Of a stretch of DNA of 64,000 bases, positions 50,490 to 60,148 are shown in pieces; within the stretch, counting starts at the first letter, position 1, and each line of letters starts with the position of its first letter. Origin of the DNA: Burkholderiales bacterium (GTDB lineage: Bacteria; Pseudomonadota; Gammaproteobacteria; Burkholderiales; SG8-39); the NCBI GenBank assembly GCA_035273665.1, contig DATEOW010000006.1, forward strand, positions 60,318 to 124,317, read 5' to 3'. The position numbers and the translations under genes were made by a program. The notes below the pieces were generated by a model. The model made no database searches and had not been told where the DNA came from. It saw only the letters and a list, made by a program, of their open reading frames with translations.

Positions 50490-51767
50490 TCAGCGCGCTT
50501 CGTGACAGAGTCGTCCGGACACAAAGGTGTAACGCGTAACACCGGGCAGTTCGTAGCCCAGGAACGGCGTGTTCCTACCTTGGCTTTTCAGCGATTCGGC
50601 GCTCAGCTTGAACCACTGTTCCGCCGCGAAAATGCATATATCCGCTTCCGCGCCGACGCCGAGATGGCCCGCATCGATATTCAATACTTTTGCCGGTTCA
50701 CTGGTAATCCGCGCTAAAGCTTGCAGCAACGGAATCTTGAGTTCCTGGGCCCATTTCAAGGTCAGGGGCAGAAGCAATTCCAACCCAGTCGCTCCGGGCT
50801 CCGATTCCGCGAAAGGCATTTGCTTCGCGTCGTCGTCTACCGGAGTGTGGTCGGAGCAAATCGCATCAATTGCACCGTCGCGCGCACCTTGGCGCAAAGC
50901 ATCGCGATCGCGCAAAGAACGCAATGGCGGTACCAAATTGCAATGCGGATCAAAATAACCCAGATCCATTTCGGATAGATGCAAGTGATGCACAGCAACG
51001 TCGCAAGTCACAGGAAGGCCCGCTTGTTTCGCATCTCGCACCATTGCAACCGCCTCAGCGGTCGATAACCTGCAAAGGTGCACGCGCGCGCCGGTGGCGC
51101 GCACCAGTTGCAATATCGCTGCTAAGGCAATGGTTTCGGCAAACGCCGGAATACCCGCTAAGCCAAGGCGCGTCGCAACTTCTCCATCGTGCGCAATACC
51201 CGCTTTGGCGAGGAATGAATCCTGGGGCCTTAACCAAACGGTAAAGCCGAAGGTCTTGGCATATTGCAGCGCGCGCCACAATACTTCGGTATCGAGAATC
51301 TGCCGGTCGGCCTGCGAAAAGGCAACGCATCCCGCATCGCGCAGCTCCGCCATTTCGGTCAACCGCTCACCTTCCAGCTTGGCTGTCAAAGCTCCAAGCG
51401 GATACACATGCGCGAGGTTGAGACTACGCGCCCGATGTTTAAGCATTTCAACCAGACCCGGCTCATCCAAGGGCGGATCAGTGTCCGGTGGACAAGCGAG
51501 GCTCGTCACGCCCCCTGCCACGGCCGCGCGCATTTCAGATTGAAGCGTCGCCTTATATTCGAAACCGGGCTCACGCAGGCGCGCGGAAAGATCAACAAAC
51601 CCCGGCGACACGACGAGTCCGGCAGCATCGATGGTTTTGTTCGGGCTGAAGCCCGGCGGCGTTGCGCCCAACCCAAGAATTTTCCCACCGCCAACGAAAA
51701 GATCTTGCACGGCATCCACGCCGTTCTTCGGATCAATCACGCGGCCGTTCTTGATGTGCGTCTTCAT
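50490..51767 (-). CDS. dihydroorotase-like protein PyrC' (predicted non-catalytic ATCase partner)
   Basis: 425-aa amidohydrolase fold downstream of pyrB. The canonical DxHxH metal motif reads VDLSARLREPG, so both His residues are replaced. Confidence 0.85.
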   Translation of the reverse strand: MKTHIKNGRVIDPKNGVDAVQDLFVGGGKILGLGATPPGFSPNKTIDAAGLVVSPGFVDLSARLREPGFEYKATLQSEMRAAVAGGVTSLACPPDTDPPLDEPGLVEMLKHRARSLNLAHVYPLGALTAKLEGERLTEMAELRDAGCVAFSQADRQILDTEVLWRALQYAKTFGFTVWLRPQDSFLAKAGIAHDGEVATRLGLAGIPAFAETIALAAILQLVRATGARVHLCRLSTAEAVAMVRDAKQAGLPVTCDVAVHHLHLSEMDLGYFDPHCNLVPPLRSLRDRDALRQGARDGAIDAICSDHTPVDDDAKQMPFAESEPGATGLELLLPLTLKWAQELKIPLLQALARITSEPAKVLNIDAGHLGVGAEADICIFAAEQWFKLSAESLKSQGRNTPFLGYELPGVTRYTFVSGRLCHEAR

Positions 51768-51768
51768 G

Positions 51769-52041
51769 AAGGACCTATCTCGCCACTCCGCGTGACCACG
51801 ACCGAAGCGATTTGCTTGTCCTGGCTAGGCGCTGATGACGACATTTGGTTATTCCAAATTAGGAAGAGGCAACGCAACCGGGGCAGCAAATCGCCCGGTC
51901 CCTCCGGGTTGCCGATCGATATCGGCGTCTGCGTTGTTGCGACCCCTTGCAATAGATGACTGTTGCCGCGGGCCCGCCGCCTAGCGTCCATCCGTTTTGA
52001 TCGAGCAACGTGGTTCATGGGGAGTAGCGAGATAGGTCCTT
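51769..52041. repeat. 273-bp structured element bounded by inverted repeats (MITE-like) between pyrB and pyrC'
   Basis: Terminal inverted repeats lie at 51769-51800 and 52009-52041. The first 15 nt are identical and about 29 of 33 positions match. A second-tier pairing links GCTAGGCG (51824-51831) with CGCCTAGC (51978-51985). Internal hairpins lie at 51843-51859, 51877-51899 and 51911-51926. No convincing ORF is present. Confidence 0.6.
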
Positions 52042-52993
52042 AATTGCCTGCCAGGATAGACATAACGGCCATGCGCACGGCGATACCGAAGGTGACCTGC
52101 GGCAAGATCACGGCCTGCGATCCATCCGCGACGGTCGAGTCGATCTCGACGCCTCGATTCATGGGTCCAGGATGCATGACGATCGCGTCTGGTTTAGCAA
52201 GCGCGAGTTTGTCCGGCGTGAGGCCGTAGTATTTAAAGTATTCCTGTGCGGAAGGCAGCAAAGGCCCGCGCATGCGTTCATTCTGCAGACGCAGCATCAC
52301 AATGACATCGACATCGCGAAGGCCTTCAGTCATGTTGTGAAAGACCCGCACACCCAGCTGACTGACGCCCGTCGGCATGAGCGTTTGGGGACCGATTACA
52401 CGCAAGTCGGGCGTGCCAAGCGTTGTCAACGCATGAATCAGGGAGCGCGCCACCCGCGAATGCAACACATCTCCAATGATCGCCACGGATAGTCCGGTAA
52501 ATTCTTTTTTGTAATGACGGATGGTGTAAGCATCCAAAAGTCCTTGCGTCGGGTGCGCGTGGCGACCGTCACCGGCGTTGATCACATGGAGATGTGAAGC
52601 AACATGTTGTGCGATCAAATGAGGCGCACCGCTTTGCGCATGGCGGACAACAAACATGTCCGCATCCATCGCCGTCAGATTGTCGACCGTATCGAGCAAT
52701 GTTTCGCCCTTCGTCGTCGACGAGGTATTGATGTTTAGGTTGATAACATCTGCCGAGAGACGCTTTGCCGCGATTTCGAAAGTTGTCCGCGTGCGCGTCG
52801 AATTTTCGAAGAATAAATTGAACACCGATTTGCCCCGCAGCAGCGGTAGCTTTTTTACTTCTCTATCGCTGATACCGACAAAGGATGAAGCGGTGTCAAG
52901 AATATGGGTAAGTATTGCGCGGGGAAGACCTTCGATGGTGAGCAAGTGTTGCAGCTCGCCTTTTGCATTCAATTGAGGATTACGCATTATCAA
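52040..52993 (-). CDS. pyrB: aspartate carbamoyltransferase catalytic subunit
   Basis: Motifs [12 protein letters not shown] and HPGP(MNRG). Confidence 0.95.
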
Positions 52994-53480
52994 ATCGTAG
53001 CGAAAGCTTTCCTGAAGTGTCGCGATCGAGCACGAGCATCGAATCCTTGGGAACAGTTATCTTGGCCGCCGCGTATTGCGCCGAGATCGGTAATTCGCGC
53101 TCACCTCGATCCACAAGAACGACAAGGCCGATGCTTGCGGGCCGGCCGTAATCGAAGAGCTCGTTCATGGCGCCTCGCACGGTTCGTCCCGTATAAAGCA
53201 CATCATCGACGAGCAGAATGTGCCGCCCGGCGACATCGAAAGGGATATGCGAACGCTTGAGGTTTGCCTTGAGCCCGGATTGGTCAAAATCATCGCGGTA
53301 GAACGAAATATCGATTTGACCGAGCGCATGCTGCAGACCCAAGTCCTTGTGCAAGCGCTCTGCGAGCCACACGCCACCCGTGTAGATGCCCACCATGGCT
53401 GTGTCAGAATGAATACCTCGCCGCAACTGCACGAGCAGTTCCTGGTAAAGTTTTTCGGCCTCAGGAAGCTGGATGCTCAT
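52980..53480 (-). CDS. pyrR: bifunctional pyr operon regulator / uracil phosphoribosyltransferase PyrR
   Basis: 166 aa with the PRPP-binding loop [13 protein letters not shown], upstream of pyrB. Confidence 0.9.
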
Positions 53481-53913
53481 TGAAATAGGCTTGCAAAATC
53501 ACCTGCGCGGCGACGGGATGATTAAGATTCTTATCGCTCTTGCCGCTACGGCCTTGCTCACGCAACATCGCGCTTGCTTCGGCGGAGGACAGCCTTTCGT
53601 CGATAAAGATCACCGGTAAATGGAAGCGACCTTCAAGTTGGCGCCCGAACCGACGCGCACGACGGGTCATTTCTCGTTCTGTTCCGTCGATGGCCAAAGG
53701 CAGCCCCACTACCAGCAGAACGGGGCTCCACTCGCCCACGAGCGCCGCGATAGCGGCAAAACGCTGCTCATTGGCTTCGGCATCGATCGCCTCGAGCGGA
53801 TGTGCGACGCCAAGCATGCTCTCGCCAATGGCAACCCCGACGAACCGTTCGCCGAAATCGAAGGCCATCACGCTCCCGCTCTTTTTTGAATGAGGCCAGG
53901 AAACCGGGGCCAT
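53461..53913 (-). CDS. ruvX: Holliday junction resolvase-like protein RuvX/YqgF
   Basis: SGSVMAFDFGERFVGVAIGE aligns with the YqgF N-terminus. Start is taken at ATG 53913 and ATG 53940 is an alternative. The 196-aa ORF is an upstream extension that overlaps yqgE. Confidence 0.85.
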   Translation of the reverse strand: MAPVSWPHSKKSGSVMAFDFGERFVGVAIGESMLGVAHPLEAIDAEANEQRFAAIAALVGEWSPVLLVVGLPLAIDGTEREMTRRARRFGRQLEGRFHLPVIFIDERLSSAEASAMLREQGRSGKSDKNLNHPVAAQVILQAYFNEHPAS

Positions 53914-53932
53914 GATTTGATGCTTGCGCGCC

Positions 53933-54502
53933 TCAGGCATGCCCTGCCTCATCCGAGAGGGTCGCGTAGGAGATCCCCAACATTTGCATTGCCGCCGCGA
54001 GGCGCGCTTCGGCGGGCATCTCGAACAAGACGTCTTCTCGGGCTTCCACACTTAACCACGCATTCTGTTTGATCTCATGCTCCAACTGACCCGCTGCCCA
54101 CCCCGAGTAACCCAAGGTAACCAGGATCTGCTGAGGGCCGGCGCCCTTGCCGACTGCCTCCAAGATATCGCGCGAAGTGGTGAGTCCAATGTGATCGCGC
54201 ACCGCCAAGGTCGAGGACCACTCCCCTTTGGGGCTATGCAGCACGAAACCCCGGTCGGTCTGCACCGGGCCGCCGAAATAGACAGGCGTGTCGAAAAGCT
54301 GTGACGGCTCCAATTCGAGTTCGAGCCGCTCGAAAAGGCTCTGGAGGCTCATGTCGATGGGCCGATTGACGACGATGCCTAAGGCACCCTGCTCGTTGTG
54401 CTCACAAATATAGGTAAGGGACCGGGCAAAATAAGGATCGGCCATGTTGGGCATGGCGATGAGGAAGTGATTGGTTAAATCAACGCTCGGCACGGTCCGC
54501 AT
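53933..54502 (-). CDS. YqgE/AlgH family protein
   Basis: 189 aa with [28 protein letters not shown] and GGPV motifs. Confidence 0.88.
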
Positions 54503-54652
54503 TCTACCCGCTTGAGCGGTCGACCGCCTGCGGATTCGCCAATTTCCGGCCTTCTCCTACATTTCAAAGGCACACCGCCTTGCCGGAAGCGAATGCCCTC
54601 AGAGAAGCAATGCGTCCCGGCGCGCAGTACCTGCGGCGCCAGGATGGGGGTG

Positions 54653-57600
54653 TCAGACCAAGGTAGGCCGTTTGACGAAGGCGGCGATGTGTTCGAGCAG
54701 TTGGTCTTCCTGATACGGTTTGCCCAGGAAAACGTTCACCCCGATCTGCGCCGCATAGTTGCGGTGCTTCTCGGCGGTGCGGGAAGTGATCATGATGATC
54801 GGGATGTGTTTCAGCGCTTCGTCATGACGGACATTGCGCGTCAAATCGAAACCATCCATACGCGGCATTTCAATGTCGACGAGCATGACGTCGGGTCGCG
54901 CTTCCTGCAATTGTTCCATCGCATCGACACCGTCTTTGGCCGTGAGCACTTGATACCCCTCGCGCGCCAATAACCGGCCGGTAATTTTCCTAACGGTCAA
55001 CGAATCGTCGACGATCATGATTGTGGGCGTAGTGAGCGCCGCCACTGGGGTTGCCATCGGCGTAGCAGCGCGCACGGCGCCCTGATCATGAGAGGCGAGA
55101 ATGACCGGATTGATGATCAATACGATCTCGCCGGTACCCAGCACGGTCGCCCCTGTGATACCGACGATACGGGCGAGCAGCGGCCCCGTGTTCTTCACCA
55201 CGATTTCCTGGTTGCCGATCACCTCGTCGATCTGCACTGCGGCGTGATTGGCGCCGCTACGTGCGAAGAGCACCGGTGTGATGCGCGCCGCTTCGGGTTG
55301 ATGCACGGCATCGCCCAGCAAATAGGGCAGATAGCGGAATGCAAAACTCCGGTCTTGCCAACGCATTTCCCCGCTTTGCTGCGCGCGCTTCAATTCTTCG
55401 GCCTTCACGTGGCGAATCTGTTCGACCATCACCGAAGGCACCGCATAGATGGTACCGCCGGCGCGCACGAGCACAGCCTGTGTCACCGCGAGCGTCAGCG
55501 GCAAGAAAATAGTGAAGCGCGTGCCTTGCCCAGGGACAGAAGTCGTATCGACCCGTCCGCCCAAGGCGGTAATTTCGTTTTTGACAACGTCCATGCCGAC
55601 GCCGCGGCCGGACAATTGCGTCACTTCACTGGCGGTCGAGAAGCCGGGGTGGAAAATAAACTCGGCAATTTCACTTTCGCCCAACTCAGCATCCGCGGCG
55701 ATTAGCCCGAGACTGAGCGCCTTGGCGCGAATGCGGTCGTAGTCCAGGCCGGCGCCGTCATCCGACACGGCCAACATGACTTCATTGCCCTCTTGCCGCA
55801 CTTCAACGGTGATTTCGCCGATTTCATTCTTGCCGCGCGCGCGCCGTACGTCTGCCGCTTCGATACCATGCGCCACGCAATTGCGCAGCATATGTTCAAA
55901 AGGCGCCGTAATGCGCTCGAGCACGGAACGATCCAATTCAGCCTGGCTACCGCGAATATCCAACACGGCCCGTTTACCGGAGTCTTTGGTCGCCTGTCGC
56001 ACAACGCGATAGAGGCGTTCGGTGACGCTCGCGAAGGGCACCATGCGAATACGCATCAGATCGCCTTGCAAGTCGCGTGTCATGCGTGCCTGCGCCATGA
56101 GCGCTGCATCGGCCTCGTCAAGCGCTTTGAGCAAGTTATTGTGAACCGTAGAAACGTCGTTCACGCTTTCGGCCATCATCCGCGTCAATTCCTGGAAGCG
56201 GCTGAAACGGTCCATTTCCAGCGGATCGAACTCGACATGCTTTTCCTGGGCCAAGCTCATTTTCGACTGCATCTGCGATTCGGCTTGAATCTCGATTTCA
56301 CGCAATTGCGTGCGCAGGCGGCTAACGTTCTCGGTCAGATCGTGTACGGAGAACTTGAGCGTGCGCATTTCGCCTTCGATACGGCTACGCGCAATACTGA
56401 CCTCGCCCGCTTCATTAACTAAGCGGTCGATGGTATCGGCGCGCACGCGCAACATCGCTCGCTGTGCTGCAGCGACTTCCAATTCTTCGGGTGTGGCGGG
56501 AGCCGGCGGCTGCATCGGCGTCGGCGCGACCGCGACGGAGCTCACGGTTTCCGCGGGAATTTCTTCCGCAACGCTCGGCTCGAAGACCGGCGCATCTGCT
56601 ACAACCGGCGCTTCAGGTACCAACGCATTCGGATCGAGCAGATGCTCATATAGCGAATTCAGGCGGTCGTACGCCATTTCCAAATCGTCAAACAAACTGC
56701 CCGGTAGATTCTTCAAGGCGAGCGCATTTTCGACGCGGGTTTCCATGGTGTGGGTCAATTCGCCCAACGCCATCGCGCCCGTCATCCGAGCCGAACCCTT
56801 CAATGTGTGCAAACTGCGCTGAAGCGAATGCCCTGCGGCCACATTGCCCGGGTTGTCGCGCCAATCGCGCAACCCTGCGCCGATGGCAGGCATCAGTTCT
56901 TGCGCTTCTTCCAGGAAGATTGGAAGAAGTTGCGGATCCAGGTCATCGTCAACGCGACCGCGACGACGCTCACGCTCAATCCGTTCCTCTTCCTCCGTCA
57001 TGCGCTCAGAGAAAGGTTCAGCGCCCGACGAGGGGAAGCTAAGAACGTTTGCCGGCATTTCGTTCGCGGTGATATGACCGAAAGCGCTCGGCATCACTTC
57101 AGGCGCCGCAGCTTCTTCGGTTGGCAGCACTTCCATCATGCCGGAAAAGTCCAGCTCGACCGGCGCATCGGTTATTGGGGATTCCGACGCGTTCATTTGT
57201 ACGAAATCGGGCAGGCTTTCCGGCGAAAGCACAGGCAATGCGTTCAAACGATCGACCAGCGTTTGAGCGGAAGGTGGCAAGCGGCGCGCTGCCACCTGCT
57301 CCACCATGTCATCCAGTTGCGCAAGCGCATCGGCGATTGCAGCCCGGCTTTCAGCCTCGATATTCTGATTGTCGATGCGATCGAGCAGATGCTCGAAGGC
57401 CTGTCCTACTTGTTCGATTGCATCAATGCGAACCGTACCTGCGATTCCGTTCAGCGTATGTGCGGCGCGCTTGAAGTCGTCGCTCGGCGCGGCCGGAGAA
57501 TGGGTCATGCGCATTTGTGCGATTAACGCACGCGCTTCGTCGACGAAAATTCGGTAAAGGGATGCAGATAATTCCACATCGCCTACGGCCACTGTTTCGG

Positions 57601-60148
57601 ACGATTCGACAGCGTTCGTGTCGCCGGTCGGGCTGAAATCCAAGGATTCGGCAGCCGATTCCTCAGATACGATGGAGGGTGCGCGAACCTCTGAGGTCGA
57701 CTCAGCCGCCGCGACGGGCGGCGAGAGCTCCCCCAATGGTTCACCTGATTTCACTTTCTCGGCCGCTGCGACAACCGCGCTCTCATCGGGACTTGCTCCG
57801 CCCGCTTTTAATGTAATGACCGCTTGGTCGAAGAAACTGCGCGCATACTCGATCAGCGTAAGCAGATCGGGCGTCGCCGAACGTTCTTCTTCCAACCAAC
57901 GATTCAGAACCTGCTCTACCGACCACGCCGCTTCGCCCAGACGTGTCAGACCAACCATGCGGCCACTGCCTTTGAGCGTATGGAAGCCGCGGCGAATAGT
58001 CCGCATCACATCGATGTTCTGCGTGTCGTCACGCGCGATCACCAGATGGTCGGCAATGGTCTGCAATACTTCGCCCGCTTCTTCGAGATAAACCGACAGA
58101 AGCTCAGCATCAACCGTTTCGTCGCTTGCCTTCAGTAACTTGGCAGCTTCCGCAGAATGCGCATGCACCGCTGTAGACGGCGCAATGTTTTGCATCACTT
58201 GCGAAATCTCGGCGTCGAAGGGTTTCACCGTCGACACTTCCATCAGTGCGAGCATTTCGCCAATGCGCTGAGCAAGCGAGGCATGAGAGACGAGGTTAGC
58301 GTCTTTTTGAATTGCAGTAAGGTTCGCGCGCAGGATATCTTTGAGCCGCCCATCTTCAGGCTGTTGACGCCACGCTTCGAACTGGCGCTCCAATTCCCGC
58401 TTCGCCGCGCCGATTTCGGTTTCGACCGTCGAGCCATGCGTCTGCGCTTCGATGGTTTCGCCGCCCATACCTTCTTGGGCGCCGATGGGTTTCATCGTGG
58501 CATCGAAGTCTGCTTTGCCGTGCTGAAGCGCTTCAACGTAGAAACCGAGCCCTGACAGCACACCGGCGACGCGTTCAAAATCTTCTGCGCTCGGTTTGTA
58601 GTCCGATTGACTAAAACGCTGAATTTCGACTGCGGTCTGCGCAAGAGCGGCGGCAGCACGATCTTCGTTCAACATCGTCAAAGCGCCCATCACCTGCCGC
58701 ACGGGTTTGTCCAAGCCGACGAGTTCGCCACGCTGGTTTTCGTCGCGGAAGAAGGCGTCAAGCGCCTGTTCGATCGCGCGTAGCGAAGCTTGAATCTCCG
58801 AGACGACCTGGGACATGAGCAAACGCTCTTGCGCACGGCGCGACATTTCGTCCAGCAACGGGATCGGCACGACACTGGTCAGCGTGGTGCCGCTCATGCA
58901 ACCTTGCAGGCGCTCGTTCATGATGCGCACCTGCTCGGCAAACTGTTCGCTTGGTTTATCCAGCGTGTCGAGCGCGTTCTCGATCAGCAGCAATGCTGTG
59001 GCAACTTCCATTGCCGCGGAATCGTCACAGCGTTCAGGATTTTCGTTGGCCCAATCTGCGACAGCGGATAGTTGTTCTGTCAGCGCGCGCAACTTTTCTT
59101 CGCCCAAGGCGACGGCATAACCGGCGATCTGTTCGGCCTGATCGCGGAAACTGCTGATGCTCGGACGATGGCCGGAGGCGACCTTGTTCCAAGTGGACTT
59201 GGCGGTGTTCACCAACTCGCGCAATGCGCGTTTGGCCGGCGGCGGCGCAGTGGCATCGCCTTTCACGGTCAAGCTGTCGGGAATGGTCGAAGCCAGTTGA
59301 TAGACCTCGTGCACTTGACGCACGTGATCAGTGACCGGTTTTGCGCGAGCGACGGTGAAGAGCGCCTCGCGCATGAGCCGCTCGGCGACAGCCGTCGGCC
59401 CTTCGATAACCCGTTTAAGTTGTTGCTCGATGCGGTTGCAAAGCCGTTGAATCGCCGGCTGTGCAGGCACGGCGCGGCCGGCAAGCGCATCGAAGAAACC
59501 AAGTGCCACCCACCAAAAGGCGCGCTGCGCCGGATTGGTCTGCACCGCTTCGACTGCCGCAACGGCGACGCGCATGCCTTCGACGCCACTCCAGTCATGC
59601 CGTAACCACTTGAGCAAGCCTCGTTGATAACGAGCGCGCTGACGGCGAAGATACAAAGGCATCTGCTCCGGCGCTACAGTGACGGGCGGATGTTCGCGGC
59701 GCGGCGGACGGCGCGTGAGATCGGGATAATAAAGATCGATCGGATCCGGTGCGCGACCGCGCGCGATCACGACATCCGCATACAGGGGATAAAGTTTCAG
59801 CGGTTGATTCGGCCCGCCGGCCAGCAACTCTTCGAGATAGCCGCCAATTGCGGCGTATGCTTCCTGAATCGCTTTTTGGGCGTTGGAAAGCGGCGCTTCC
59901 TCGCTCCCCGCGAAGTCGCTCAGCAAGCCTTCCACTTCTTCGGACAAACGCGTCACGCCGTCGAGACCGACGATCTGCAACGCGCCATGCGCCTGGTGGA
60001 AATGCTTCTGCGCCGTCTTCAGCGAAGCTTTATCGTCGCTGTTGGCGAGATAGGTGCGCAAGGCCTCGCGCGAACGCTCCAAAGCCTGATCGATCTCGCC
60101 TTTCACCCAAGTCAGCGGACCTACATCGAAGTTGCTCGGCTTGCTCAT
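54653..60148 (-). CDS. chpA: hybrid CheA-type histidine kinase ChpA/PilL of the type IV pilus chemosensory system (multi-Hpt, HATPase, CheW-like, C-terminal REC)
   Basis: 1831 aa. Hpt motifs are FHQAHGALQIVG, GFHTLKGSGRMVG, AAHTLNGIAGTV and SLHTLKGSARMTG. There is a kinase core (GRGVGMDVV), a CheW-like domain and a REC domain (IMIVDDS...DVMLVDIEMPRMDG). Confidence 0.92.
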   Translation of the reverse strand: MSKPSNFDVGPLTWVKGEIDQALERSREALRTYLANSDDKASLKTAQKHFHQAHGALQIVGLDGVTRLSEEVEGLLSDFAGSEEAPLSNAQKAIQEAYAAIGGYLEELLAGGPNQPLKLYPLYADVVIARGRAPDPIDLYYPDLTRRPPRREHPPVTVAPEQMPLYLRRQRARYQRGLLKWLRHDWSGVEGMRVAVAAVEAVQTNPAQRAFWWVALGFFDALAGRAVPAQPAIQRLCNRIEQQLKRVIEGPTAVAERLMREALFTVARAKPVTDHVRQVHEVYQLASTIPDSLTVKGDATAPPPAKRALRELVNTAKSTWNKVASGHRPSISSFRDQAEQIAGYAVALGEEKLRALTEQLSAVADWANENPERCDDSAAMEVATALLLIENALDTLDKPSEQFAEQVRIMNERLQGCMSGTTLTSVVPIPLLDEMSRRAQERLLMSQVVSEIQASLRAIEQALDAFFRDENQRGELVGLDKPVRQVMGALTMLNEDRAAAALAQTAVEIQRFSQSDYKPSAEDFERVAGVLSGLGFYVEALQHGKADFDATMKPIGAQEGMGGETIEAQTHGSTVETEIGAAKRELERQFEAWRQQPEDGRLKDILRANLTAIQKDANLVSHASLAQRIGEMLALMEVSTVKPFDAEISQVMQNIAPSTAVHAHSAEAAKLLKASDETVDAELLSVYLEEAGEVLQTIADHLVIARDDTQNIDVMRTIRRGFHTLKGSGRMVGLTRLGEAAWSVEQVLNRWLEEERSATPDLLTLIEYARSFFDQAVITLKAGGASPDESAVVAAAEKVKSGEPLGELSPPVAAAESTSEVRAPSIVSEESAAESLDFSPTGDTNAVESSETVAVGDVELSASLYRIFVDEARALIAQMRMTHSPAAPSDDFKRAAHTLNGIAGTVRIDAIEQVGQAFEHLLDRIDNQNIEAESRAAIADALAQLDDMVEQVAARRLPPSAQTLVDRLNALPVLSPESLPDFVQMNASESPITDAPVELDFSGMMEVLPTEEAAAPEVMPSAFGHITANEMPANVLSFPSSGAEPFSERMTEEEERIERERRRGRVDDDLDPQLLPIFLEEAQELMPAIGAGLRDWRDNPGNVAAGHSLQRSLHTLKGSARMTGAMALGELTHTMETRVENALALKNLPGSLFDDLEMAYDRLNSLYEHLLDPNALVPEAPVVADAPVFEPSVAEEIPAETVSSVAVAPTPMQPPAPATPEELEVAAAQRAMLRVRADTIDRLVNEAGEVSIARSRIEGEMRTLKFSVHDLTENVSRLRTQLREIEIQAESQMQSKMSLAQEKHVEFDPLEMDRFSRFQELTRMMAESVNDVSTVHNNLLKALDEADAALMAQARMTRDLQGDLMRIRMVPFASVTERLYRVVRQATKDSGKRAVLDIRGSQAELDRSVLERITAPFEHMLRNCVAHGIEAADVRRARGKNEIGEITVEVRQEGNEVMLAVSDDGAGLDYDRIRAKALSLGLIAADAELGESEIAEFIFHPGFSTASEVTQLSGRGVGMDVVKNEITALGGRVDTTSVPGQGTRFTIFLPLTLAVTQAVLVRAGGTIYAVPSVMVEQIRHVKAEELKRAQQSGEMRWQDRSFAFRYLPYLLGDAVHQPEAARITPVLFARSGANHAAVQIDEVIGNQEIVVKNTGPLLARIVGITGATVLGTGEIVLIINPVILASHDQGAVRAATPMATPVAALTTPTIMIVDDSLTVRKITGRLLAREGYQVLTAKDGVDAMEQLQEARPDVMLVDIEMPRMDGFDLTRNVRHDEALKHIPIIMITSRTAEKHRNYAAQIGVNVFLGKPYQEDQLLEHIAAFVKRPTLV

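Follow-up and report, generated by a model that had tools for sequence, protein, structure and literature searches.

Organization of the pyrB-pyrC' junction

In a 64,000-nucleotide stretch of contig DATEOW010000006.1 from a Burkholderiales bacterium (the whole stretch, hereafter designated the window), the genes pyrB and pyrC', both on the minus strand, are separated by a spacer of 272 nt that contains a 271-bp segment bounded by inverted repeats, which we interpret below as a probable mobile element of the MITE (miniature inverted-repeat transposable element) type. The features of the locus, in window coordinates and with no strand assigned to the parts of the segment, are as follows.

50490-51767, minus strand: pyrC', encoding a dihydroorotase-like protein of 425 aa (translation; Pfam Amidohydro_1/DHOase)
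51768-51769: putative decayed TA copy on the pyrC' side, TC in the mRNA sense and TT in a second assembly of the locus (L001)
51769-51800: terminal inverted repeat (TIR), predicted 5' strand of the basal helix in plus orientation, holding the mRNA-sense AGGU
51770-52040: inserted element proper, AGGACC...GGTCCT, 271 bp (273 bp with the TA flank), delimited by empty sites, homologues and a covariance model
51801-51892: left arm, a long imperfect hairpin with the tip ATTTGG/CCAAAT (about 51843-51859), predicted from single-sequence folds of three members
51893-51909: central hairpin CCCGG-TCCCT-CCGGG at a predicted three-way junction, nearly invariant in the family
51910-52007: right arm, a long predicted hairpin with the conserved blocks TCTGCRTTGTTGCG and AATAGA (helices 6 and 8)
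52009-52041: TIR, predicted 3' strand of the basal helix in plus orientation, from inverted-repeat search, folds and alignment
52040-52987, minus strand: pyrB, encoding the aspartate carbamoyltransferase (ATCase) catalytic chain of 315 aa (translation; Pfam OTCace_N/OTCace)
52041-52042: TA, pyrB-proximal flank and candidate target-site duplication, serving as bases 1 and 2 of the pyrB stop

The pyrB stop codon is TAA (52042-52040, minus strand), composed of the flanking TA and the first A of the element, and the C-terminus of PyrB, ...SILAGN, is the same as in relatives. The pyrC' ATG lies at 51767-51765 on the minus strand and opens the N-terminus MKTHIKNGRV, which is common to a relative without the insert. 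Both protein termini are thus unaltered in the window despite the insert. PyrC' has DLSARLREPG at the position of the HxH zinc motif of active dihydroorotases, and a PyrC' without this motif is what we take to be the inactive type, as which an earlier annotation made from the sequence of the window (hereafter designated the original prediction) had rightly labelled it. The Pseudomonas-type systems contain PyrB and an inactive PyrC' in a stoichiometric ATCase complex. Because the lack of HxH would place PyrC' among the inactive, structural proteins of this type, its 1:1 expression with PyrB should matter. The gene pyrR lies directly upstream of pyrB.

The ends of the element are imperfect TIRs of 32-33 nt with identical outermost bases (15 of 15), and an inverted-repeat search placed the complementarity at 51766-51795 versus 52015-52044 (30 nt, 87% complementary). 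The outermost 15-mer, AAGGACCTATCTCGC, was found in the 64 kb only at the two element ends when up to two mismatches were allowed (chance expectation, 0.06). These searches agree with the original prediction, which had described the 272-nt separation of the pyrB stop from the pyrC' ATG and imperfect inverted repeats with 15 identical terminal nucleotides, and whose coordinates and quoted sequences proved exact.

The spacer is an insertion absent from related junctions

The same prediction had held that pyrB and pyrC' are normally adjacent or overlapping, and had proposed that their junction be compared among related genomes in search of an empty site. Both points were borne out. Among the junctions of 80 relatives (GTDB Burkholderiales and other Betaproteobacteria), the spacer was -4 nt (an ATGA-type overlap) in 27, -1 nt (a TGATG overlap) in 2, 1-30 nt in 30, 31-100 nt in 13 and >100 nt in 8, so that 59 of the 80 spacers fall between -4 and +30 nt and just one measures at least 272 nt. 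In the closest relative, represented by six contigs and with a PyrC' 91% identical, the junction is GCG GGG AAC TAG A ATG AAG ACG CAT, with no insert, and the syntenic relatives at 79-81% identity show either a 4-nt overlap or a 3-nt gap. Indeed, the element was missing from the pyrB-pyrC' junction in every relative examined (90-odd loci). Judging from this comparison, the 272-nt spacer is an insertion at a site that is empty in the nearest relatives.

The insert is present in three independent assemblies, namely, the window, an ENA locus (L001/L095) and two Logan contigs (L002 and L096, run SRR5195146), and is therefore not an assembly artefact. The ENA locus is 99.85% identical to the window over 13 kb, insert included. 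Within roughly 370 nt of the element, the window and L001 disagree at position 51768 alone (C versus T in the mRNA sense). This base directly precedes the pyrC' ATG and is the one position that keeps the basal helix from continuing into the start codon. The two Logan contigs (L096:1133-1337 and L002:1-98) break off within the element and share 30 nt there (window 51835-51864), indicating a branch in the k=31 assembly graph, so that the SRR5195146 sample may contain another sequence like this one or a strain variant.

Homologous copies and their TA flanks

A second member was obtained by sensitive blastn/nhmmer comparison of the element with the fetched loci, giving a match at about L029:1100-1260. 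The complete copy occupies L029:999-1279 (element proper, 1001-1277) in a metagenome-assembled genome from Denmark labelled 'uncultured beta proteobacterium', and has 28-nt inverted repeats (82%). Its neighbours are a photolyase gene, whose ATG abuts the end of the copy (...GGTTCCC TA ATG CCT... in the photolyase sense), and a DUF179 gene. The spacer in which it resides measures 470 nt and is the longest of 40, the 39 relatives that share this divergent pair having spacers of 15-297 nt. The third member came to light through the translated element frame, which matched, among 1.84 billion protein representatives, a spurious 77-aa open reading frame (ORF), P0121 (72% identity), called on an ENA contig whose accession is close to that of the ENA twin of the window. 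This copy, L094:937-1217 (element proper, 939-1215), is situated between malic-enzyme-like and patatin-like genes, and its TIRs are present.

Trained on the window and L029 copies, a covariance model scored 304 bits for the window, 317 for L029 and 237 for L094, and the pairwise identity was 83% between the window and L094 and 54-56% between either of these and L029. The element lies in the same gene-sense strand in the window and relative to the L029 photolyase gene, and in the opposite strand in L094. The three members occupy three unrelated intergenic settings. By sequence alignment and covariance model, they are members of a previously undescribed family of about 280 bp, found so far in uncultured Burkholderiales only. 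The search for dispersed TIR-bounded copies that had been suggested in the original prediction has thereby yielded two diverged homologues at unrelated intergenic sites of other assemblies, and its remark that no second copy was visible in the window was confirmed by both blastn and the covariance model. Run on the window, its +/-10 kb flanks and the fetched loci (~0.74 Mb in total), the model found no further members; the flanks contained neither a second copy nor a transposase, and no recombinase gene was present nearby in the gene tables of the locus and flanks. Moreover, a paired 12+12 TIR pattern found no match in JGI metagenomes, nor did a degenerate family motif in viral contigs, nor, by BLAST, the three members in plasmids or the window copy in phages. 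A match of TIR 41-mers to a Paraburkholderia phymatum plasmid was set aside as due to chance, having no inverted partner and no covariance-model score.

The ends of the copies, read in a common orientation with the slash marking the limit of the element, are given below.

Window: left, CAT GA/AGGACCTATCTCGC; right, GCGAGATAGGTCCT/TA ATTG
L001: left, as in the window with AA for GA; right, as in the window
L094: left, CTTA TA/GAACCTATCTCAC; right, GTGAGATAGGTTC/TA GTG
L029: left, CAT TA/GGGAACCTCTGC; right, GCAGAGGTTCCT/TA GAC

In short form, they read GA/AGGACC...GGTCCT/TA in the window, TA/GGGAACC...GGTTCCT/TA in L029 and TA/GAACC...GGTTC/TA in L094, the family termini being TAAGGACCTATCTCGC or TAGGGAACCTCTGC. 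TA thus occurs at five of the six ends of the three copies, and the sixth is the polymorphic site beside the pyrC' ATG.

Conserved fold and compensatory changes

The window element folds with a predicted energy of -132.4 kcal/mol (z = -7.0) in the mRNA-sense strand and -139.4 kcal/mol (z = -8.4) in the other, with 0 of 200 shuffled sequences as good in either case. The comparison of folding energy with shuffled controls, named in the original prediction as a check, therefore comes out far on the side of structure. Most of the signal is given by the terminal helix, since the interior alone (51801-52008) has z = -2.0 and -2.9. Similar values were obtained on the two strands of the L029 copy (-166.9 kcal/mol, z = -11.0, and -152.1 kcal/mol, z = -8.75) and of the L094 copy (-144.8 kcal/mol, z = -9.3, and -137.8 kcal/mol, z = -8.2), so that all members on both strands range from -132 to -167 kcal/mol with z = -7 to -11. 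The predicted fold is Y-shaped in all three, comprising a basal helix of ~31-37 bp, the left arm, the central hairpin CCCGG...CCGGG and the right arm.

In the three-sequence alignment, 92% of cells are paired, and compensatory changes on both sides were found in 32 of 86 pairs, as against 12.3 +/- 2.7 in column shuffles (0 of 500 reaching the observed number) and 3-8 when the structure was slid by 1-3 columns. Such double changes affect 16 of the 31 pairs of helix 1 (the basal helix) and, in the right arm, 9 of the 14 pairs of helix 6 and 4 of the 17 pairs of helix 8. The left arm (helices 2-4) aligns poorly owing to a 7-nt indel and shows weak covariation, and in helix 5 (the central hairpin), which belongs to a conserved alignment block, five of the six pairs never vary. 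The divergence rate is equal at paired and unpaired positions. With respect to the internal structure put forward in the original prediction, the 8-nt second tier of complementarity, GCTAGGCG/CGCCTAGC, is present in the sequence but has no place in the consensus fold and is not retained by the homologues; among its three internal hairpins, ATTTGG/CCAAAT forms the end of the left arm, whereas covariation supports longer pairings to which the other two are local alternatives.

In all members it is the same strand that folds better, by 7-15 kcal/mol. Selection on a strand-specific RNA was considered on this account and dropped, because RNAalifold gave 97 pairs and -121.9 kcal/mol on the other strand versus 86 pairs and -115.8 kcal/mol, and because G-U and A-C cells numbered 20 versus 20 over the union of both structures. 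The mirrored consensus being symmetric, the fold is a symmetric property of the duplex, which, as far as the alignment goes, fits a palindromic architecture at the DNA level, possibly upheld by arm-to-arm template correction; selection for folding on either strand is also conceivable. Template switching between arms can maintain palindromes without selection. If it were not recognized, a family with 32 covarying pairs in three members would probably be reported falsely by screens for new structured RNAs.

Coding capacity and RNA families

An ATG-initiated ORF of 84 aa (52018-51764, minus strand) spans almost all of the element, and its TGA overlaps the pyrC' ATG (ATGA), from which it could be imagined that the element is a gene for a small protein translationally coupled to pyrC'. 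The ORF has no homologue among 5.8 billion protein clusters, its homologous frame is interrupted by stop codons in L029 and L094, no Shine-Dalgarno sequence stands at a usable distance, and the ORF was left uncalled by the gene callers at the locus; conversely, the frame open in L029 is closed in the window, and no frame is conserved across the three members. The small-protein reading, to which we assign practically no probability, is ruled out by the missing homologues and the broken frames in the copies, and the earlier statement that the spacer has no credible ORF stands.

Searches with Rfam 15 at E <= 10 gave two chance-level matches in the window region (E = 3.4 and 4.9), with the PyrR element not matched, and none in L029 or L094, with HEARO, IS605-associated, group I/II intron and ribozyme families included. 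Neither promoter- nor terminator-like sites were detected in the element, and likewise neither an IHF site nor an outward promoter.

Nature of the element

Bacterial MITEs have TIRs, target duplications, no transposase and very stable RNA folds, and are usually <200 bp in size, extending up to about 400 bp (PMC3184786); their direct repeats (target duplications) decay with time (PMC10969869). The segment agrees with the MITE characteristics listed in PMC3184786 in its size, lack of coding capacity, TIRs, stable fold, and occurrence of filled versus empty sites. Between the two architectures named in the original prediction, a MITE or a large structured RNA, the former is favored by the empty sites, the dispersed copies, the TA flanks and the absence of coding capacity, and an RNA dedicated to the pyr genes is not. 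We consider it likely that the 271-bp segment is a MITE-like, non-autonomous, non-coding transposable element residing in the pyrB-pyrC' junction, the coupling proposed in the next section being the conjectural part of this assignment. So understood, the locus shows an event of a known kind in unusually tidy form, and not a new regulatory RNA.

Several observations weigh against this assignment. Because TA is its own reverse complement, the TA at the ends is possibly the conserved tip of the inverted repeat and not a duplication, and one TA is missing in the window; two of the three copies are equally compatible with a duplication of 4 bp (TTAG/TTAG in L029 and TTAA/TT(C or T)A in the window). 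On these ends, the transposase responsible may be of an IS630-like (TA) or an IS5-like (4-bp YTAR) family, and the searches yielded no partner element of the IS630 family. The element is G+C-rich (56-60%), and MITEs are usually AT-rich. It is a single copy in ~84 kb of contig, and its family has three members in ~0.74 Mb of Burkholderiales DNA. The exact TIR 20-mer is absent from 185,579 GTDB species-representative genomes and from JGI metagenomes, and an autonomous insertion sequence (IS) with matching TIRs was found neither in the window nor in plasmids; since these were exact-pattern scans, the absence of a parent IS is weak evidence. Finally, a MITE that is simply a deletion derivative would not be expected to show compensatory changes in its internal arms, and their presence here hints at either selection on the fold or arm-to-arm template correction.

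The compensatory evolution of the internal arms suggests a serious rival, unlikely as we judge it to be, namely, a mobile element whose folded single strand, whether RNA or single-stranded DNA, is the functional entity, for example as a folded single-stranded DNA intermediate or as a guide-like or structural RNA used in trans by a recombinase. The internal arms, which are not needed by a DDE transposase, stay paired through 46% divergence, with the double changes in helices 6 and 8 described above, and their pairing is kept though paired and unpaired positions diverge equally; moreover, the central hairpin, TCTGCRTTGTTGCG and AATAGA are conserved, and one strand folds better in all three members. 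This strand preference is, however, gone at the consensus level, no Rfam match was obtained even with HEARO and IS605-type families included, a promoter-like site in or beside the element and a nearby recombinase gene are both lacking, and the insertion sites differ save for TA. In addition, the template switching mentioned above is established as a way of keeping palindromes without selection. It is also conceivable, with a rather low probability in our estimation, that the conserved three-way-junction fold is required as a single-stranded DNA substrate or RNA partner of a recombinase, or that the element has been selected to be 'operon-safe', restoring the stop codon, bringing its own ribosome-binding site and permitting coupling via the basal helix. 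If true, such an element may preferentially colonise or survive at start codons, as two of the three copies lie on TA-ATG.

A very improbable reading is that of a lineage-specific cis-regulatory pyr RNA (an attenuator, a PyrR-binding element or a processing element) evolved in place. Its exact position at the junction, the stability in the mRNA sense (z = -7.0), the modelled sequestration of the pyrC' ribosome-binding region and the immediate proximity of pyrR upstream would all be in keeping with such an RNA. Against it stand the absence of the element from the junction in every relative examined, even that with a PyrC' 91% identical, the occurrence of homologues beside photolyase and malic-enzyme genes in other orientations, and the failure to detect a PyrR element or any other Rfam match at E <= 10, or a terminator.

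Insertion history and predicted effect on pyrC' translation

Under the MITE-like reading, the element would have inserted at the TA within an ancestral stop/start overlap, AAT-TAATG-AAG, with duplication of the TA. A 1-nt stop/start overlap of such a type (TGATG) is seen in two relatives. Because the element begins with A, the TA followed by this A would have rebuilt the TAA stop of pyrB, and the second TA would have come to lie directly before the pyrC' ATG, where it presumably decayed to TC or TT, with neither protein being altered by the insertion. In two of the three members, one end is 2 nt from the ATG of a gene (photolyase, L029:996-1001; pyrC', window 51765-51770), with TA or its remnant in between. 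This adjacency could reflect a target preference or a survivorship effect.

In the mRNA sense, the 3' inverted repeat ends in ...GAGAUAGGUCCUUC-AUG and the AGGU that it contains 5 nt ahead of the pyrC' AUG is a weak Shine-Dalgarno sequence, matching over 4 nt; in the L029 copy, GAGGU precedes the photolyase AUG by 6 nt. In the free junction mRNA, a partition-function model gives the Shine-Dalgarno-like bases before pyrC' a probability of 0.00 of being unpaired, and this becomes 0.2-0.98 when the pyrB stop and the next 9-15 nt are held single-stranded. The original prediction, that the terminal helix joins the pyrB stop to the pyrC' start and buries the nucleotides 5' of the ATG, is upheld by the former value as a prediction. 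Since no terminator or promoter was detected in the element, read-through transcription is expected. The basal helix would then set the pyrB stop beside the pyrC' start and hide the element-borne AGGU, and a ribosome terminating at pyrB would melt the base of the helix and free the AGGU for pyrC', as the modelled rise in unpaired probability implies. In such a manner, translational coupling of the two subunits could survive the insertion.

As an alternative outcome, RNase III could cleave the perfect-to-near-perfect helix of ~31 bp. By analogy with the Correia elements of Neisseria, for which RNase III cleavage has been shown (PMC2649163), it is plausible that the basal RNA helix is a substrate of this enzyme. 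The locus indicates that a coupled gene pair can absorb a 271-bp insert with both proteins intact, and it offers a natural test case for translational coupling across a long hairpin and for the action of RNase III on MITE-containing operon transcripts. It also bears on the tolerance of G+C-rich folded repeats in operons, where a Rho loading site may be absent.

Comparison with known elements

The Correia/CREE elements of Neisseria (Betaproteobacteria) and the RUP elements of Streptococcus pneumoniae are likewise small, non-coding and TIR-bounded, with TA at both ends. They are intergenic and co-transcribed with neighbouring genes into long double-stranded RNA, and CREE can be bound and cleaved by RNase III, altering the expression of adjacent genes (PMC2649163, PMC3184786). 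These appear to be the best parallels for the TA flanks and for possible effects at the RNA level. The present element nevertheless has no sequence similarity to them, is longer (271 bp versus ~104-157 bp) and G+C-rich, is Y-shaped with two internal arms in contrast to their one long hairpin, has no IHF site or outward promoter detected in it, and has no matching autonomous IS known.

With regard to architecture, the best match is bcr1, a repeat from the Bacillus cereus group that is mobile and non-autonomous and whose genomic distribution is not conserved; its 'cruciform-like' fold consists of a closing stem and two independent stem-loops kept by compensatory changes (PMC3184786, citing Klevan et al. 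2007). It differs in being ~155 bp long, in belonging to Firmicutes, in its 5-bp direct repeats and demonstrated transcription, and in having no sequence relationship with the element. The best precedent for an insertion inside an operon is probably Chunjie, a MITE of Geobacter uraniireducens with a predicted fold of about -98 to -130 kcal/mol (PMC3184786), one copy of which is located inside an operon and is reported without disturbance of the operon structure (PMC3184786; PMC10969869, reference 11). Chunjie is, in contrast, A+T-rich and 178-235 bp long, with 21-bp TIRs, 9-bp direct repeats and dozens of copies in one genome, whereas the present element has TA flanks and sits exactly in a stop/start overlap. 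Relative to all of these systems, it differs in sequence, length, G+C content and Y shape.

Other structured inserts and gene neighbourhood

The eight long spacers (125-313 nt) among the 80 surveyed junctions belong to L065 (3951-4265), L050 (3951-4172), L080 (1334-1531), L069, L072, L022, L063 and L017. Seven of them fold at -0.40 to -0.52 kcal/mol per nt, close to the -0.47 of the element, and that of L017 at -0.30. The spacers of L065, L080, L069 and L072 contain G+C-rich palindromes, e.g. GCTGCCCCCCGAGGGGGC, with three repeat units in L065. These inserts are likewise structured and located at the same junction in Burkholderiales, but they are unrelated in sequence and give no covariance-model match, and some consist of REP-like short tandem units as distinct from one TIR-bounded element. 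Because other Burkholderiales junctions repeatedly carry such unrelated G+C-rich palindromic inserts, the pyrB-pyrC' junction appears, from the sequences compared, to be a recurrent and tolerant landing site for structured repeats.

The gene order in the region (window 52980-60148, together with L097 and L105) comprises a FimL/ChpA-like histidine kinase gene (1831 aa), DUF179, ruvX, pyrR, pyrB and pyrC', followed downstream of pyrC' by a convergent yggT-proC-YggS group, and the whole order is kept in the closest relatives. More distant Burkholderiales have, in place of that arrangement, a photolyase gene divergent from DUF179.

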